A stretch of DNA of 32,000 bases from Pantoea cypripedii (lineage in GTDB: Bacteria; Pseudomonadota; Gammaproteobacteria; Enterobacterales; Enterobacteriaceae), in assembly GCF_011395035.1 (NCBI RefSeq), contig NZ_CP024768.1:2744412-2776411 (forward strand), written 5' to 3'. Below the pieces are notes generated by a model that was given only the letters and a program-made list of their open reading frames with translations, had not been told where the DNA came from and did not search any database. The translations under genes and the position numbers were made by a program. How positions within the stretch are numbered: position 1 is the stretch's first letter; each line of letters starts with the position of its first letter. Below, in pieces: positions 2,075 through 32,000 of this stretch.

Positions 2075-3669
2075 CAGCGATTCCTCTTCATCTTCGAATG
2101 ACCGAGATTTACTTTTGGCGCGCCACTTCTGACACGGTAGCCGCCTCTGATTTGTTCCTGCTTAATGCCGTCGAACCACGACATCACCACGGCGTCTCCG
2201 TCATCCGGAGAGCGCCCGAGACGCTTAACCAGCGATTCTTTGGCTTCGAGGTGAATCATCCCGCCGCCGTTGCCACCGCGTTTCACCTCATAGGTTGGTG
2301 CGGTAAGGTCAGACAGGAGTGTCGGGTCATCAGGCAGGCAGATTGTTGAGCCGCCCGGCTGGTCAGGATTGAGTGCTTCGCGCAGCTTCCAGTAGGCCTC
2401 TGTTCGCACGTTGGCAAACTTCAGCAGGCCATCCTGCGTTCTGCGAGGTGAGGCTTTGACGCCCATATATGAGACGGTATCCACGCCGTTTTCACGGAGG
2501 TGGGCGTATGCATCGCCGCCCCAGCCACCGCCGATATCGACGATCACCTTTGCGCCATCGCGACGCTTTGAGATAACCAGACCGGCAACATCAGTGCCGC
2601 CTGGCGTTTCTTTGCCGGGAACCTTAATGAGTCTCGCGAACCAGGAGTCATGGCGAGGTGCAAGCACTGTGTTATCAGAGCCACCCTGTGCAACGTCCAC
2701 CCCAATGGCGCTCATTGGAATGCCAACAGGTGGTGCCTCAGTCCAGCGCTTCATAGCTGCCTGAACCCACGCAGTAGGGATTGCCTGATTAGGCTCGTCC
2801 TGCAATGAGGCTCTGAACTGGCCGTCACGGTATGCGTCGCGGAGTTCTTTCGGCAGGCTGTTCAGTATTCGTGAATATTCACCGTCCTGAGCTAGGTCGG
2901 GGTTATCACTCAGCTTTGCAGGGATGAATGTTCTCGACTTTGCATGAATCGGCGAACCATCTGGCGCATAGCCGTGCGGGCCATACCCATCAACCTCAAC
3001 CTCTTCATCTGCTTCGTTGCGGATATACCATCGCAATTCGCCAGGCTTTGCCGGATTGGGGTGATTCGGGTCGAGCCATGCTCCCCAATGCTGAATAACC
3101 CACAGGCCATTGGCATTTGTTGGCGGGTTACCTGTTGCCACCACCCGGCAGCGCTGACCTTTGGTCGTGGAGCGGTTCCAGATGGTGATGAATTCGTACT
3201 GCGCTTTGAGGAAGTCAGTGACCTCATCAAAGCAAATCAGGTCGTGCGGGTCGCCTTTGTAGCGCTGCTTGTCTTCTTCCAGCTCGCAGCCGCCGTACTG
3301 GATTAGCTGCTTCCCACTGCGCCACACGAGGTCTGAACCATTCCACCCAGTGCGATCGCCATCGAACAGTTTGCCAATCAGCTCGGCCTCGGCCAGCTTC
3401 TGGGCATCACCACGGATGCGCCGCAGAATCAGTGAGCGCTCATGCGATGTGACAGCCAGGCCATTAATCAGCGCGCTCTTGCCGCCGCCAGCCTGTCCGC
3501 CATAGAACAGTTCGTCAGCTTCACAGTAGTAAGCATCCGTCTGAGGGCCGGGATTCGGCACCCATGACATACCCTCAGTAGCTGCCATCACGTCTTTTTC
3601 GACAGCCTTCAGCTCTTCCGGCGACAGCGTTTTCAGGCGCTCCAGAACATCATCGAACGATATGCTCAT
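2074..3669 (-). CDS. Terminase large subunit
   Basis: 531 aa with Walker A GGQAGGGKS near the N-terminus. A C-terminal nuclease-type region follows. It sits directly after the small terminase subunit. Confidence 0.9.
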   Translation of the reverse strand: MSISFDDVLERLKTLSPEELKAVEKDVMAATEGMSWVPNPGPQTDAYYCEADELFYGGQAGGGKSALINGLAVTSHERSLILRRIRGDAQKLAEAELIGKLFDGDRTGWNGSDLVWRSGKQLIQYGGCELEEDKQRYKGDPHDLICFDEVTDFLKAQYEFITIWNRSTTKGQRCRVVATGNPPTNANGLWVIQHWGAWLDPNHPNPAKPGELRWYIRNEADEEVEVDGYGPHGYAPDGSPIHAKSRTFIPAKLSDNPDLAQDGEYSRILNSLPKELRDAYRDGQFRASLQDEPNQAIPTAWVQAAMKRWTEAPPVGIPMSAIGVDVAQGGSDNTVLAPRHDSWFARLIKVPGKETPGGTDVAGLVISKRRDGAKVIVDIGGGWGGDAYAHLRENGVDTVSYMGVKASPRRTQDGLLKFANVRTEAYWKLREALNPDQPGGSTICLPDDPTLLSDLTAPTYEVKRGGNGGGMIHLEAKESLVKRLGRSPDDGDAVVMSWFDGIKQEQIRGGYRVRSGAPKVNLGHSKMKRNR

Positions 3670-15523: not shown

Positions 15524-15602
15524 AATCAACGTCATGTTAATTCATGGAGAGGATAAAATCAACATTATGATGATGGCTGCGGATAAACATGATGTTTATT
15601 AT
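15524..15602. promoter_or_regulatory. OR operators with PR (minus strand) and PRM (plus strand)
   Basis: Three 7+5+7 sites: AATCAAC-gtcat-GTTAATT (15524-42), AATCAAC-attat-GATGATG (15557-75) and GATAAAC-atgat-GTTTATT (15582-600). PR candidate is TTGATT / 17 nt / TAACAT on the minus strand. PRM -10 candidate is TATTAT (15597-602). Confidence 0.55.
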
Positions 15603-15623
15603 TCTGGTTCATCGGAGATATTT

Positions 15624-16331
15624 ATGACCAGCATCGCAGATCGCATTCAAAACATACTTAATCGAGAGGGGTTAAAGCAGAAGCAGCTTGCTGAAATGCT
15701 CAGCATTACGCCGCAGACGGTTAACAACTGGATTAAGAGAGATTCCATCAGCCGGGAGGCTGCCCAACAGATTTCTGAACGTTTTGGCTACTCCCTGGAT
15801 TGGCTGTTGACCGGCAAAGGAGATGCAAAGCCTGAGCACGATTCCAGCATTCCACCTGAGTCGGAATGGTTTGGTGTTGATCCGTGGGACGACAACACCC
15901 CGGTTGACGACGGCGAAGTTGCAGTGCGATTCTTAAAAGATATTGAATTTGCCTGCGGCGACGGCAGCGTTACCGATGAGGATTACAACGGATTTATGCT
16001 TCGGTTTTCTAAGGCCACCTTGCGCAGAGTTGGCGCGAGGACAGATGGCAGCGGCGTCCTATGTTTCCCGGCTCGCGGAGACAGCATGGAGCCGAACATT
16101 CCAAATGGCACCACTGTCGCAGTTAATACTGACGACAAGCGTATTATTGATGGGAAGATTTACGCCATCAACGAGAACGGCTGGAAGCGAATTAAGATGC
16201 TGTATCGCGTTGGCCCTGACATGCTCAGCATACGCAGCTACAACAAACAGGATCACCCGGATGAAGAGAAGTCAGCGCATGAAGTAGAAATTATTGGTCG
16301 CGTCTTCTGGTGGTCTGTTGTCGATTACTAA
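15624..16331 (+). CDS. cI: CI repressor (HTH + S24 LexA-like autopeptidase)
   Basis: Start at MTSIADRIQNIL with a GGAG SD. HTH QKQLAEMLSITPQTVNNWIKR. Catalytic GDSMEP and K in WKRIKML. Possible Cys-Gly cleavage site in EFACGDG. Confidence 0.9.
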   Translation: MTSIADRIQNILNREGLKQKQLAEMLSITPQTVNNWIKRDSISREAAQQISERFGYSLDWLLTGKGDAKPEHDSSIPPESEWFGVDPWDDNTPVDDGEVAVRFLKDIEFACGDGSVTDEDYNGFMLRFSKATLRRVGARTDGSGVLCFPARGDSMEPNIPNGTTVAVNTDDKRIIDGKIYAINENGWKRIKMLYRVGPDMLSIRSYNKQDHPDEEKSAHEVEIIGRVFWWSVVDY

Positions 16332-16346
16332 CATCTCCGCATCAAC

Positions 16347-16372
16347 ACAATCCCGCTATGGCGGGATTTTTT
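16347..16372 (+). terminator. Rho-independent terminator after cI
   Basis: AATCCCGC-tatg-GCGGGATT followed by a T run. Confidence 0.8.
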
Positions 16373-16390
16373 TTCGCCCAAATAAAATAA

Positions 16391-16499
16391 AATCCACACG
16401 AAATCAACCAAATGAATATCAATCAAGAAAATAAATCCACATACTGTTGACTATGAAATCCACATGTTGTTTAATCTATCCATCGACACGATGTTGATT
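16391..16499 (+). promoter_or_regulatory. OL operators and PL promoter
   Basis: PL is TTGACT (16447-52), 17 nt, then TTTAAT (16470-75). Operator-type sites are AATCCAC-atact-GTTGACT (16434-52), AATCCAC-atgtt-GTTTAAT (16457-75) and CATCGAC-acgat-GTTGATT (16481-99). Further AATC(A/C)AC half-sites lie at 16391, 16402 and 16421. Confidence 0.6.
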
Positions 16500-16525
16500 A
16501 ATCACCGGGACACGGAATTGAGTCT

Positions 16526-16556
16526 CAGCTCCTTAACAGATGGCGCTGAAAAAGCG
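16526..16556 (+). promoter_or_regulatory. nutL (boxA-like + boxB)
   Basis: AGCTCCTTAA (boxA-like) is followed by the GCGCT-GAAAA-AGCGC hairpin. It has the same GAAAA pentaloop as lambda boxB. Confidence 0.75.
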
Positions 16557-16584
16557 CAAACATTCAAAGCAGCAAGCTTTGTAG

Positions 16585-16654
16585 TGGGGTGTGGCTGGGC
16601 CTGCATGGACTGATCACCCATGAAAACCCTGGTTCGAATCCGGGGCACTCCACC
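16585..16654 (+). ncRNA. tRNA-like element (non-canonical, no D-arm) with alanine-type acceptor stem and encoded CCA
   Basis: Acceptor GGGGTGT/GCACTCC with G3:U70, A73 and CCA. T-arm CCTGG-TTCGAAT-CCGGG. Central hairpin CATGG-(9 nt)-CCATG. Only 11 nt lie where a D-arm should be. Total 70 nt including CCA. Confidence 0.45.
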
Positions 16655-16681
16655 ACAAAGCTAACTGACAGGAGAATGACC

Positions 16682-16852
16682 ATGAATACAAAACTGGTAA
16701 AAATCACAGTACGTGCATCAGGAAACTCTGTTTATATCGGTCGCACTTATGTTGGCCACACCAAAACCGAATTTTCATACAAAGGCCGCAAGGCTACCTG
16801 TGTTATCAACCCAAAACAGCGTTACATGAAGCTGGCTCCCCTTTCCCTGTAG
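16682..16852 (+). CDS. Small basic protein (56 aa) inserted between nutL and N
   Basis: MNTKLVKITVRASGNSVYIGRTYVGHTKTEFSYKGRKATCVINPKQRYMKLAPLSL. Its ACAGGAG SD lies in a 17-nt sequence that is repeated in front of N. Confidence 0.45.
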   Translation: MNTKLVKITVRASGNSVYIGRTYVGHTKTEFSYKGRKATCVINPKQRYMKLAPLSL

Positions 16853-16917
16853 TTATCTCACCATGCCGCCACAGAAACTTAGACGGCATTAATGAGCTAA
16901 CTAACAGGAGAACCAAC

Positions 16918-17229
16918 TTGAACGCACAAGAGCGTCGCCGTGCAGCCCGTGCTGAGAAGCAATCAGCATGGAAGCAAGCCAACCCCCTGTTGGTTGGTGT
17001 GAAAGCTAAACCTGATTGCCGCCCTATCCTCACGCTGAATCGCAAACCGACCGACCGTGTTGTGAAAGCAGTTGATACCGATACCGAGTATCACAAGCAG
17101 ATTCTTGCAGGTGCCGCGGCATACGTTGAATACCGCAGCAACCCTAAGCACCAGAAAGTAACCAACGAAGCTGGCCGTCAGATACATGCGGTGCAGAGGC
17201 AAAGAGGCAAGTCGATTCCTTTAGTTTGA
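16918..17229 (+). CDS. N: Antiterminator N (lambda N-like), TTG start
   Basis: MNAQERRRAARAEKQSAWKQANPLLVG...GKSIPLV aligns with lambda N (MDAQTRRRERRAEKQAQWKAANPLLVG...GKSIPLI). AGGAG SD 7 nt before the TTG. No in-frame ATG is available. Confidence 0.85.
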   Translation: MNAQERRRAARAEKQSAWKQANPLLVGVKAKPDCRPILTLNRKPTDRVVKAVDTDTEYHKQILAGAAAYVEYRSNPKHQKVTNEAGRQIHAVQRQRGKSIPLV

Positions 17230-30117: not shown

Positions 30118-30945
30118 TTAACCCAAAGGCATCGTCATGGGATCACTCCAGCTATATTCGAAACCCAGCTCATCGCAAATCGCCCTGCCGTCGATGCTTT
30201 TTCCGACGTTGCCCAGTGGCTCGGCAACAAATGTCGGCGCTGTCAGCCCAAGCTGGCGTGCCACCGTGGGATAAAACTCACTGCGTGCAGGATGTTTTGG
30301 TGCGCACAAGTTATAAACGCGCCCGCCTTTCGGCGTCTGCAACAGCAATACGATGGCTTCCACCACATCATCCAGATGCACCAGATTCACCACATGCGAT
30401 CCATCACTTAAATCCGTTTTCCCGGCGAGAAAACGGCCGGGGTGACGGTTTGGCCCCACCAGCCCGGCAAGACGCACAATATCCACGCTGGTGCCCGGCA
30501 GATCGTGCAGCCAGTTTTCCAGCGCCACCAGCGTCTTACCGGCTACCGTTTCTGGCCGTAACGGGCTGCGTTCTTTCATCACTCCCGGACCCGGGCCATA
30601 CACCGATGTCGAACTGGTGAAGATAATCCGCGGGACTTTATAGGCCAGCGCCGTGTCCACCACGTTTTGCACCGCCTGCATATAGTCTTCGCCGCCCTGC
30701 ACCGTGCGACTGGCGGGTAAAGTCACCACCAATGCATCCACCGACAGTAGCGTATTCAGATCATCAGCTTCGCACTCAAGTTCCGGCGTCAGCACCAGCT
30801 GACACGCCTCAATACCGCAACGACGGGCCGCATCCACCCCATCCGGCGAGGTTTTGCTGCCCGTCACCTGCCAGCCGCGTGCCGTTAGCGCCATCGCCAG
30901 CGGCATGCCCAGCCATCCCAGCCCTACAATCGCGACCTTTTTCAT
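30118..30945 (-). CDS. yeeZ: YeeZ (NAD(P)-binding SDR/epimerase-family protein)
   Basis: MKKVAIVGLGWLGMPLAMALTARGWQVTGSKT... is collinear with recalled E. coli YeeZ. Divergent from the his operon, as in enterobacteria. Confidence 0.9.
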   Translation of the reverse strand: MKKVAIVGLGWLGMPLAMALTARGWQVTGSKTSPDGVDAARRCGIEACQLVLTPELECEADDLNTLLSVDALVVTLPASRTVQGGEDYMQAVQNVVDTALAYKVPRIIFTSSTSVYGPGPGVMKERSPLRPETVAGKTLVALENWLHDLPGTSVDIVRLAGLVGPNRHPGRFLAGKTDLSDGSHVVNLVHLDDVVEAIVLLLQTPKGGRVYNLCAPKHPARSEFYPTVARQLGLTAPTFVAEPLGNVGKSIDGRAICDELGFEYSWSDPMTMPLG

Positions 30946-31126
30946 ATCGACTCCTGGCTTCGCTACTCAAAGACATTTCATCTTAGTGCTGTCGTCTGTG
31001 TCAGACCAGCGCTAACTGTTTCGGGGGATTCCGGAAACTGACGTTAAAAAATTCTTGCCAGCCGACGTTATCTTCGTTAGGTTAATCAGCACGCAAATGA
31101 ATACCCATTCAGCAACGGAATTTTTT

Positions 31127-31174
31127 ATGACACGCGTTCAGTTCAACCACCATCATCACCATCATCCTGACTAG
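31127..31174 (+). CDS. hisL: his operon leader peptide
   Basis: ATG ACA CGC GTT CAG TTC AAC then CAC CAT CAT CAC CAT CAT, CCT GAC TAG. This reads MTRVQFNHHHHHHPD, with six consecutive His codons. Confidence 0.9.
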   Translation: MTRVQFNHHHHHHPD

Positions 31175-31237
31175 TCTTTCAGGCGATGTGTGCTGGAAGA
31201 CATTTAAGATCTTCCAGTGGTGTGAGCGCAAAGAGAG

Positions 31238-31269
31238 CCCCCGGAAGATCATCTTCCGGGGGTTTTTTT
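31238..31269 (+). terminator. his attenuator terminator
   Basis: CCCCCGGAAGA-tca-TCTTCCGGGGG followed by TTTTTTT, between hisL and hisG. Confidence 0.85.
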
Positions 31270-31325
31270 ATGGGCTGACGCAACCCAACTGAGTTCAGAC
31301 AGGATTGAATAAGAGGACAGGAACC

Positions 31326-32000
31326 ATGTTAGATAACACCCGTTTACGCATAGCTATGCAGAAATCTGGCCGTTTGAGTGATGAATCACGCGAACTGCTG
31401 GCGCGCTGCGGCATCAAAATTAACCTTCAGCAGCAGCGTTTGATTGCGTTTGCGGAGAACATGGCCATCGATATCCTGCGTGTGCGCGATGACGATATCC
31501 CAGGCCTGGTGATGGATGGCGTGGTGGATCTCGGTATCGTGGGCGAAAACGTGCTGGAAGAAGAGTTGCTGACGCGCCGTGCCCAGGGAGAAGACCCACG
31601 TTACTTTACCCTGCGTCGCCTCGATTTCGGTGGTTGCCGCCTGTCGCTGGCGATGCCGGTTGATGCCGAGTACACCGGCCCGCAATGCCTTGATAAGTCA
31701 CGTATCGCCACCTCCTACCCTCACCTGCTGAAAAAGTACCTCGATAAACAAGGCGTCGCTTTCAAATCCTGCCTGCTGAATGGTTCTGTCGAAGTGGCAC
31801 CGCGTGCCGGTCTGGCTGATGCAATCTGTGACCTGGTATCTACCGGTGCCACGCTGGAAGCGAATGGTCTGCGCGAAGTTGAAGTCATTTACCGCTCTAA
31901 AGCGGTGCTGATTCAGCGCGACGGCGAACTGAGCGGCGCCAAGCAGGAGCTGGTCGATAAACTGATGACGCGTATTCAGGGTGTGATCAAAGCACGCGAA
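31326..32000 (+). CDS. hisG: ATP phosphoribosyltransferase, N-terminal 225 codons (continues past the window)
   Basis: [34 protein letters not shown]...[28 protein letters not shown]... is highly similar to enterobacterial HisG. No stop in the window, so it is absent from the ORF track. Confidence 0.95.

Follow-up and report, generated by a model that had tools for sequence, protein, structure and literature searches.

The pL leader of phage lambda is among the most studied regulatory RNAs, and the autoregulation of N and its relief by ribonuclease III (RNase III) are textbook knowledge. The lambda N leader is a substrate of RNase III (Steege 1987, as cited in PMC5371410), and N/Nus assembled at nutL represses translation of N, an effect that RNase III modulates across the structured leader (Wilson 1997, 2002, as cited in PMC5725501). 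Phage HK639 carries antitermination of the put type, in which a putL RNA takes the place of N and nut (King et al. 2011). Here, we describe a compact RNA shaped like a transfer RNA (tRNA) in the N leader of a lambda-type prophage from Pantoea cypripedii. It lies within a 32,000-nucleotide (nt) stretch of contig NZ_CP024768.1 (positions 2,744,412 to 2,776,411), referred to below as the window. The element forms the apex of a leader hairpin homologous to that of lambda, recurs in the pL operon of HK639, and may act as a processing module between the antiterminator RNA and the downstream message.

An earlier note, made from the letters of the window alone, had placed a tRNA-like element with an alanine-type acceptor stem in an N leader downstream of nutL. 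That placement is borne out by the Pfam N36 match of the antiterminator gene (E = 4e-14), by a CI-like repressor gene and by alignment of the leader to lambda. The element itself stands, but its span was given as 16585–16654, which is one base off: both ARAGORN and direct reading put G1 at 16586 and the terminal A of the CCA at 16655 on the plus strand. The 7-base-pair (bp) acceptor stem, the canonical T-arm, the discriminator A and the encoded CCA listed in the note are all present, as are the 28-nt gap from the end of boxB (16557) and the central hairpin with a 9-nt loop (16609–17) and an A-C closing mismatch. The D-arm position is indeed only 11 nt long, as described, yet it folds as a mini D-arm of 3 bp with a 3-nt loop.

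The minimum free energy (MFE) fold of the element is a four-way cloverleaf with an acceptor stem of 6–7 bp, the mini D-arm, a 5-bp stem with the 9-nt loop, and the T-arm. ARAGORN, one of the checks proposed in the note, reports a tRNA-Ile(gat) at 16586–16655 with its anticodon at position 27, the sole match in the 32 kb. The Rfam tRNA model (RF00005, gathering threshold 29 bits) matches 16586–16652 in a permissive scan at a sub-threshold 14.6 bits (E = 4.2), and the model of transfer-messenger RNA (tmRNA) gives no match. At gathering thresholds, Rfam finds only the His operon leader at 31150–31271 in the window. The element also departs from the rules for anticodon loops (a 7-nt loop, U33 and a purine at position 37), so the view that it is not a normal tRNA stands on both counts. 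A covariance model built from the family described below (R1) scores the element at 108 bits, its only strong match in the window, and the opposite strand at 14.7 bits. The G:U pairs (G3:U70, U7:G66 and a U:G pair in the T stem) are likewise valid only on the plus, pL-sense strand, and the functional molecule is therefore the pL-sense RNA.

The stability of the bare 70-mer is ordinary (z-score = -0.58 relative to shuffled sequences). The element with its flanks is unusually stable (z = -3.6 to -3.7 in folds of a 96-mer and of 16500–16700, with 0 of 200 shuffles as stable), because the flanking sequences AGCUUUGU and ACAAAGCU pair with one another. In this basal helix A16583 is mismatched, while G16584 and U16585, positions -2 and -1 of the element, pair with C74 and A73.

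Homologues were sought in genome, plasmid, phage and metagenome collections. Megablast identified an unannotated 84-nt match in phage HK639 (NC_016158, 33688–33771) that is 95% identical, includes the flanking helix, and lies inside the pL operon. HK639 is the only phage among the phage records to carry the element; it is present in one of 5426 complete E. coli genomes (the PEC148 prophage) and absent from the plasmid collection. An 18-mer scan recovered 22 IMG/VR contigs. One further member, L189, came from a metagenome scan for short tRNA-like sequences of the form GGGGTG...CACTCC, in which the other matches were other compact phage tRNAs. Four further patterns scanned over viral sequences yielded ordinary tRNAs or chance matches and no members beyond the 22 contigs. 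All 120 matches of a loose pattern (GGCTGGGCCTGN7TGATCA) over genome contigs were chance, mostly in high-GC genomes, and none had a T-arm. Rfam searches of the lambda, Sf6, HK639 and environmental loci found no family that covers these leaders, and no published description of the element was found in the literature searched. The element thus defines a small RNA family that is unannotated and absent from Rfam.

The family comprises seven distinct variants, effectively three lineages, and covariation is informative only for the stems that vary. Across the seven variants, 98.6% of alignment cells are paired in the cloverleaf. Both-sided changes, which the note had suggested looking for in homologues, affect three pairs of the anticodon-like stem and two of the T stem, five in all, and the stems are conserved. 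The observed covariation score was reached by 0 of 500 shuffles, and slid registers fall to 27–54% paired. Enterobacterial and environmental lineages differ at 11 of the 20 positions in these two stems versus 4 of 50 elsewhere (Fisher p = 6e-5). By contrast, the acceptor pairs G1-C72, G2-C71, G3:U70, G4-C69, U5-A68, G6-C67 and U7:G66 are invariant in all seven variants, and the 11-nt mini D-arm and the loop core GAUCA are unchanged as well. The D-arm reads GGC-UGG-GCC in every copy, so that covariation is silent on it, and the T-arm is canonical. Position 37 is C in every copy, U33 is replaced by C in L189, and the closing pair is A-C, A-A or U-A.

The environmental variants (L012/L019 and L189) have neither a leader-trailer helix nor an encoded CCA, and in L012/L019 the discriminator A73 is replaced by G73. 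These copies lie early in an operon, beside a divergent regulatory region. Searches for a protein common to the enterobacterial and environmental loci returned only spurious translations across the element. Directly 3' of the element the environmental copies have a common sequence (CAACGAAGGGGGAGACACGC-GAAA-G; L019 2678–2890, L189 205–240), which in L019 is followed by about 200 nt that lack a long open reading frame (ORF) and may be a further structured RNA.

The element sits where lambda has its RNase III-processed hairpin, in the pL transcript, after the nutL boxB and ahead of the first ribosome-binding site. Homology to the lambda N leader runs from boxB-(A)CAUUCAAAGCAG to GCUUUG and resumes at CAAAGCUAACUGACAGGAGAAU, and only the interior of the hairpin differs. 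The leader strand of the basal helix is homologous to lambda GGCUUUGG, and the two leaders have in common GGGGUGUG as the 5' strand of the upper stem and CC-ACCA as a motif on the 3' side. The anchoring flanks recur in at least 30 related leaders, and a boxB identical to GCGCUGAAAAAGCGC is found in at least 20. Lambda, Sf6-type and window leaders have one common basal leader-trailer helix topped by a variable apex (z = -3.7 to -4.2). The helices measure 3 + 8 + 2 + 6–7 bp with small internal loops in the window, 12 + 2 + 7 bp in HK639, and 3 + 7 + 8 bp in lambda; that of the window spans about two helical turns, as expected for a hairpin of the lambda type. The leaders also differ. The apex in the window, 70 nt long, folds as a cloverleaf that has G3:U70 and a canonical T-arm, whereas that of lambda is a three-way junction unlike a tRNA. 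Where the basal helix joins the upper stem, the window has 4–5 nt more than lambda (UAGU / C), and it has a 56-amino-acid (aa) ORF between leader and N. RNase III cleavage is known for lambda and is predicted for the window by analogy.

To compare the site across phages, we extracted the sequence between the two anchors from reference phages and from 42 N-encoding IMG/VR loci found with the N protein of the window. The site holds at least 17 distinct cassettes of 19–219 nt, the shortest being a plain 19-nt hairpin (L260). The helix is therefore constant, and the apex exchangeable. A T-loop motif, GGTTCRANTCC, is present in four cassette types, where far fewer than 0.01 occurrences are expected by chance in about 1.7 kb. 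In each it lies 12–16 nt from the 3' end of the cassette, next to the upper-stem 3' strand, which is the arrangement of a tRNA. For the cassette of L272 (IMGVR_UViG_3300011794_000001, 1394–1475), ARAGORN predicts tRNA-Pro(agg) and the Rfam tRNA model gives 34.8 bits, above the threshold of 29. The cassette has a canonical D-arm and no proper anticodon loop, and its acceptor is the lambda-type upper stem GGUGUG/CACACC followed by A-CCA. The N protein of this locus is 91% identical to that of the window over residues 1–70. Lambda, Sf6 and many other leaders retain the sequence ...CACC-A-CCAAAGC, which can be read as the 3' strand of an acceptor, a bulged A in the place of a discriminator, and a CCA that would be paired to the leader. 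On these sequence comparisons, the window element appears as one state in a series that runs from a near-complete tRNA to a bare hairpin with the helix as its constant part, and the series suggests a tRNA-derived origin for the whole family of leader hairpins.

Other cassettes at this site have features of their own. In L264 and L278 (134 and 154 nt), a T-arm stands beside a 9-bp acceptor-like stem with A-CCA, and more than 100 nt are inserted at the place of the D and anticodon arms. Their topology recalls tmRNA, and ARAGORN calls them neither tRNA nor tmRNA. L259, L265, L266 and L267 carry a 65-nt apical cassette with a second boxB-like hairpin, GCGUGAAAAAGCGC, inside the processing hairpin, which could be a second site for binding N. 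Sf6, HK544, HK446 and mEp213 (L251–L254) have a common, highly structured apical cassette of 219 nt (z = -4.2) with no Rfam match.

In HK639 and its relatives, the same module follows a different antiterminator. The conserved block consists of GGAAUGUUUUGUAGU, the tRNA-like element and CAAAGCAUUUC, and conservation stops where the 12-bp leader-trailer helix ends. In the commonest arrangement, that of PEC148, the block starts about 12 nt after sequence homologous to the annotated HK639 putL antiterminator RNA. In HK639 itself, an insertion of about 470 nt that includes ORF45 separates putL from the module (L001 2586–3000, compared with L002), and the element is unannotated in the GenBank record. 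The module thus follows both the N-dependent nutL and the factor-independent putL, two unrelated antiterminator RNAs, and sequence comparison indicates that the compact G3:U70 form has moved intact between nut-type and put-type leaders.

We propose, with a probability of roughly 0.5, that the element serves as a processing module on which RNase III acts first and RNase P second, so that the antiterminator RNA and the message downstream of it are uncoupled. The leader-trailer helix and the acceptor stem would together form a quasi-continuous helix of about 20 bp and would be cut by RNase III, as in lambda. The cut would detach the message that follows from the nutL RNA and its bound N/Nus (from the put RNA on the polymerase, in the case of HK639-like phages) and would thereby set the translation and stability of the first early-left genes. 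The freed piece, resembling a pre-tRNA, would then be trimmed by RNase P on its 5' side and by 3' exonucleases to an RNA of about 70 nt. The sequence comparisons and folds establish the structure, how it is conserved, where it lies and that it is homologous to the lambda hairpin, and it is the nucleases, the order of cutting and the regulatory consequence that we infer here; the note had likewise suggested a processing signal separating nutL from the message, with RNase P or RNase Z as the nuclease. Of the three roles that it offered, this is the best supported, by the lambda hairpin site and the common basal helix, while a different first nuclease is more likely. We judged the element against the list of RNase P determinants in PMC10731613. 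U(-1)/G(+1), G1-C72, a 12-bp acceptor/T stack (7 + 5 or 6 + 6), the T-loop UUCGAAU and ACCA are all present in the sequence. The proximal 5' leader, which should be unpaired with the RCCA, is instead paired: C74 and A73 have G(-2)U(-1) as their partners, with 8 bp more beyond them. RNase P can be slowed by orders of magnitude by an anti-determinant of this sort (PMC10731613). With A73-C74 and beyond bound up by the 5' leader, RNase III is likelier than RNase P or RNase Z to act first. A processing role accounts for where the element sits, for its helix and for its presence after nut and put alike.

Several points weigh against this proposal. Cleavage of the leader, in this phage and in HK639, is something that we infer entirely. 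The 7 acceptor pairs, the 11-nt D region and GAUCA are invariant even though the other two stems have been replaced throughout from one lineage to the next, and a processing role alone leaves that invariance unexplained. An RNase III step is unlikely in L012, L019 and L189 because they lack the leader-trailer helix (and an encoded CCA). Related phages lack a tRNA-like apex, which is therefore not generally required for leader function.

The invariance of the acceptor end and loop points to a possible role in trans. The freed RNA of about 70 nt might persist as a mimic of a tRNA with alanine identity, appear within minutes of the onset of lytic growth and act on the tRNA-binding machinery of the host; its leader position would then merely guarantee early expression and processing. 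Targets could include alanyl-tRNA synthetase (AlaRS), EF-Tu, the CCA-adding enzyme or RNase P, or the RNA could be a decoy for a tRNA-targeting toxin or defence nuclease. We hold this possible but on the doubtful side, and it and a processing role are not mutually exclusive. While the anticodon-like and T stems carry five double-sided changes, the acceptor stem, mini D-arm and GAUCA stay fixed in 7 of 7 variants, and this crowding of substitutions into two stems is the pattern of RNAs whose acceptor end and loop are recognised by their sequence. Unrelated environmental phages that have no lambda-type helix carry the family too, still early in an operon; since no protein is common to the two sets of loci, a universal host partner is implied. 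The window has every tRNA-Ala acceptor feature cited in the note (G1-C72, G2-C71, G3:U70, G4-C69 and A73), and none of the pairs varies among the seven variants. G3:U70 in this acceptor context, together with A73, reportedly suffices for AlaRS (Hou & Schimmel 1988; McClain & Foss 1988; Francklyn & Schimmel 1989), and the element looks compatible with an AlaRS substrate. The G73 of L012/L019 and the missing CCA of both environmental variants argue against such a mimic, as do the rarity of the family and the lack of any tRNA-like apex in most related N leaders, and we know of no defence system that targets a CUGAUCA loop. We also considered pairing through the loop. A kissing-loop dimer formed by the palindrome UGAUCA is weakened by L189, which has CGAUCA, so that only GAUC(A) is conserved, and a pairing of the loop with a downstream hairpin in HK639-type loci is not conserved in HK639 itself. 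A broader combination is unlikely as a whole: that the lambda-family leader hairpin descends from a leader-embedded tRNA gene and is still a live cassette site exchanging tRNA-like RNAs, and that the compact G3:U70 version, both in the window and after put RNAs, yields a stable mini-tRNA that can be charged with alanine and acts in trans on the tRNA-handling or tRNA-targeting machinery of the host in early lytic growth.

The cassette series itself also fits another account, in which the element is a relic, a partly decayed copy of a tRNA gene once present in the leader hairpin, that only lengthens or caps the helix. The series can be laid out from L272 (34.8 bits) through the compact form (14.6 bits) and the T-arm-only L264 and L278 to lambda and Sf6, which keep an acceptor-like stem and A-CCA, and finally to the bare hairpin; C37 and the A-C closing mismatch are also un-tRNA-like. 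We nevertheless consider this unlikely, given that compensatory substitutions hold both variable stems, that only 4 of the 50 non-stem positions differ between deeply diverged hosts, and that the module was transferred intact between nut-type and put-type leaders. The decayed tRNA-Ala gene of the note is, as stated, not supported: compensatory changes keep the structure, and substitutions concentrate in two stems. A recent fragment of a host tRNA was rejected, as the E. coli genomes contain no match at E ≤ 1e-5 besides the PEC148 prophage copy. Real tRNAs have a purine at position 37, and t6A37 is expected with a GAU anticodon. A working tRNA that reads isoleucine codons, charged with isoleucine or, as deliberate mistranslation, with alanine, is thus very improbable in view of C37 in every copy, C33 in L189, a closing pair of A-C or A-A, a D-arm of 3 bp with a 3-nt loop, and a Rfam score of half the threshold. 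G3:U70 would moreover put alanine at isoleucine codons and harm the phage's own proteins. In its favour, ARAGORN calls tRNA-Ile(gat) in all copies, GAU is conserved, and metagenomes contain D-arm-less 58-nt tRNA-Ala(UGC) genes in what may be phage tRNA arrays. We give hardly any credence to a purely DNA-level function as an integrase or satellite attachment site or a Dam/SeqA GATC site. tRNA-like sequences are common attachment sites and the loop contains GATC within TGATCA, but compensatory changes keep RNA pairing, the G:U pairs and the covariance-model scores fit only the pL-sense strand, and none of at least 25 loci has an interrupted copy.

The features of the locus are collected in Table 1. 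The promoter was not called by a strict consensus scan, because position 2 of the -10 hexamer is T; transcription probably starts near 16482.

Table 1. Features of the pL–N region of the window and their coordinates.
Feature	Position	Strand	Sequence or structure	Basis or remark
CI-like repressor gene	15534-16331			Pfam Peptidase_S24, Phage_CI_repr; upstream of pL region
Terminator	16349-16376			Accompanies CI-type repressor gene
Putative pL region	16390-16475	+		Aligns with lambda pL and its transcription start
Operator-like repeats	16390-98, 16433-41, 16456-64		AAATCCACA, three copies	
-35 and -10 hexamers	16447-52, 16470-75		TTGACT, TTTAAT	17-nt spacing
nutL	16528-16557	+	boxA-like GCUCCUUAA (16528-36); boxB hairpin GCGCUGAAAAAGCGC (16543-57)	Aligns with lambda nutL
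Basal helix, leader strand	16575-16585	+	AGCUUUGU, pairs with 16655-16662	Folds of 16500-16700 and of the 96-mer
Compact tRNA-like RNA	16586-16655	+	Cloverleaf	ARAGORN, Rfam tRNA, MFE cloverleaf, covariation over 7 distinct homologues, covariance model R1
Acceptor stem	16586-92 / 16645-51	+	GGGGUGU / GCACUCC	G3:U70 plus U7:G66 wobble
D region	16593-16603	+	GGCUGGGCCUG, 11 nt	Mini D-arm GGC-UGG-GCC in fold
Anticodon-like arm	16604-22		Stem CAUGG (16604-08) / CCAUG (16618-22); 9-nt loop ACUGAUCAC (16609-17)	GAU at 16612-14
Linker	16623-27	+	AAAAC	
T-arm	16628-44	+	CCUGG-UUCGAAU-CCGGG	
A73 and CCA	16652, 16653-55	+		
Basal helix, trailer strand	16655-16662	+	ACAAAGCU	Overlaps A of CCA; homologous to lambda CCAAAGCU
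Lambda-type ribosome-binding region and 56-aa ORF	16663-16852	+	AACUGACAGGAGAAU	ATG 16682, stop 16850-52
Second ribosome-binding region and N gene	16893-17229	+	GAGCUAACUAACAGGAGAAC	TTG start; N 16918-17229, 103 aa

The N antiterminator is 45% identical to lambda N (tblastn), and its TTG start codon (16918) stands where lambda has ATG. The ribosome-binding region AACUGACAGGAGAAU before the 56-aa ORF is identical to that of lambda N. The 56-aa ORF has no Pfam or PHROG match, exact-sequence look-ups found neither it nor N on record, and Pfam and PHROGs gave nothing informative for the neighbouring small ORFs. A ribosome-binding region of the form (A)AGCUAACU(G/A)ACAGGAGAA is present twice, at 16657–16684 before the 56-aa ORF and at 16893–16920 before N. 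It looks as if the small ORF had been inserted between leader and N, duplicating the ribosome-binding site of N. A hairpin lies at about 16863–16889, between the 56-aa ORF and N. In the 201-nt fold, CUCCU in the boxA-like sequence (16528–16536) pairs with the Shine-Dalgarno sequence AGGAG (16670–16675) of the first ORF; this predicted pairing could close the leader and occlude the ribosome-binding site, or could be chance. At the far end of the window, the His operon leader (Rfam, 116.7 bits) is followed by hisG, and the prophage adjoins the his operon. The chromosomal his region at 30400–32000 is only about 73–75% identical to that of E. coli, which makes the host a different member of the Enterobacterales.

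Several other loci contain compact elements with alanine-type acceptors. The metagenome contigs L152, L237, L217 and L208 carry 58-nt genes resembling tRNA-Ala(UGC), which have G3:U70 and an anticodon stem of 4 bp and lack a D-arm altogether, and L152 has several other tRNA-model matches and may hold a phage tRNA array. L157, L162, L222 (5395–5457) and L226 carry 63-nt elements with the GGGGUGU/GCACUCC acceptor, a tmRNA-like D-region AAUAGGUUCGAUU, a GNRA-capped hairpin, AAGAC and a T-arm. By sequence these look like 'mini tmRNAs' reduced to the tRNA-like domain, and the one in L222 abuts the 3' end of an ORF resembling a DNA cytosine methyltransferase. L146 (about 2551–2642, minus strand) and L148 (101–192) carry 77-nt G3:U70 tRNA-like elements (GGGGUGC.../GCACUCC-ACCA) in which the D region, of 10 nt, is unstructured and the central hairpin long. 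These are the best matches of the covariance model outside the family (40–41 bits); the element in L146 lies just upstream of ORFs resembling the small and large terminase subunits, and ARAGORN calls no tRNA there.

In this setting, the processed lambda-type hairpin is a hypervariable cassette site at which several cassettes are tRNA-shaped, one of them above the threshold of the tRNA model, and the series suggests a tRNA origin for the lambda hairpin. The compact G3:U70 form has apparently been relocated intact behind the unrelated put RNA, which suggests a design rule in which an antiterminator RNA is followed by an excision module and then by the message. If the released RNA, with its invariant alanine-identity acceptor stem and GAUCA loop, were charged or served as a decoy, phages would encode a tRNA mimic of a new kind.

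Compared with known RNAs, the element shares with canonical tRNAs, including tRNA-Ala, the 7-bp acceptor stem, a T-arm with UUCGAAU and G53-C61, a UGG at the place of the D-loop, and A73-CCA. E. coli tRNA-Ala has the same first four acceptor pairs, and the family covariance model finds E. coli alaT at 24.8 bits, with ileT not among the matches at E ≤ 1. It differs from canonical tRNAs in its D-arm of 3 bp and a 3-nt loop, in the lack of a U8/N9 spacer, in C37, in the mismatched closing pair, in an anticodon of the Ile rather than the Ala type, and in being embedded in an mRNA leader. With the tRNA-like domain of tmRNA it has in common the G3:U70 alanine-type acceptor, the lack of a proper D stem, the canonical T-arm and ACCA. 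Unlike tmRNA, it is only 70 nt long, with just 35 nt from the 5' strand of the acceptor to the T-arm, and its D region GGCUGGGCCUG lacks the tmRNA motif of the GGAUUCGAC type. The note's mention of tmRNA does not extend to membership of that class: the element has no tag frame and no pseudoknots, is not called as tmRNA by ARAGORN, and has no Rfam tmRNA match at E ≤ 10. The M3 RNA of phi80, a classic phage substrate of RNase P, was rejected as a homologue: it is annotated at phi80 36229–36288 as an oop homologue, at another locus. M3 RNA also lacks a T-loop (PMC5499578). Like MALAT1 mascRNA (the subject of PMC8457004), the element has a tRNA shape within a longer transcript, and by functional analogy its excision would define the ends of the neighbouring RNAs. 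Like the RNase III helices formed by leader and trailer in ribosomal RNA (rRNA) operons with spacer tRNAs (leader-trailer helices are the subject of PMC10250234), its helix encloses the unit that would be processed, and the module follows a boxA/boxB site. Both mascRNA and the rRNA operons belong to other organisms and other sequence families. Functionally, the closest known system would be the RNase III hairpin of the lambda N leader and, by analogy, modules of the mascRNA type and the leader-trailer helices of rRNA.

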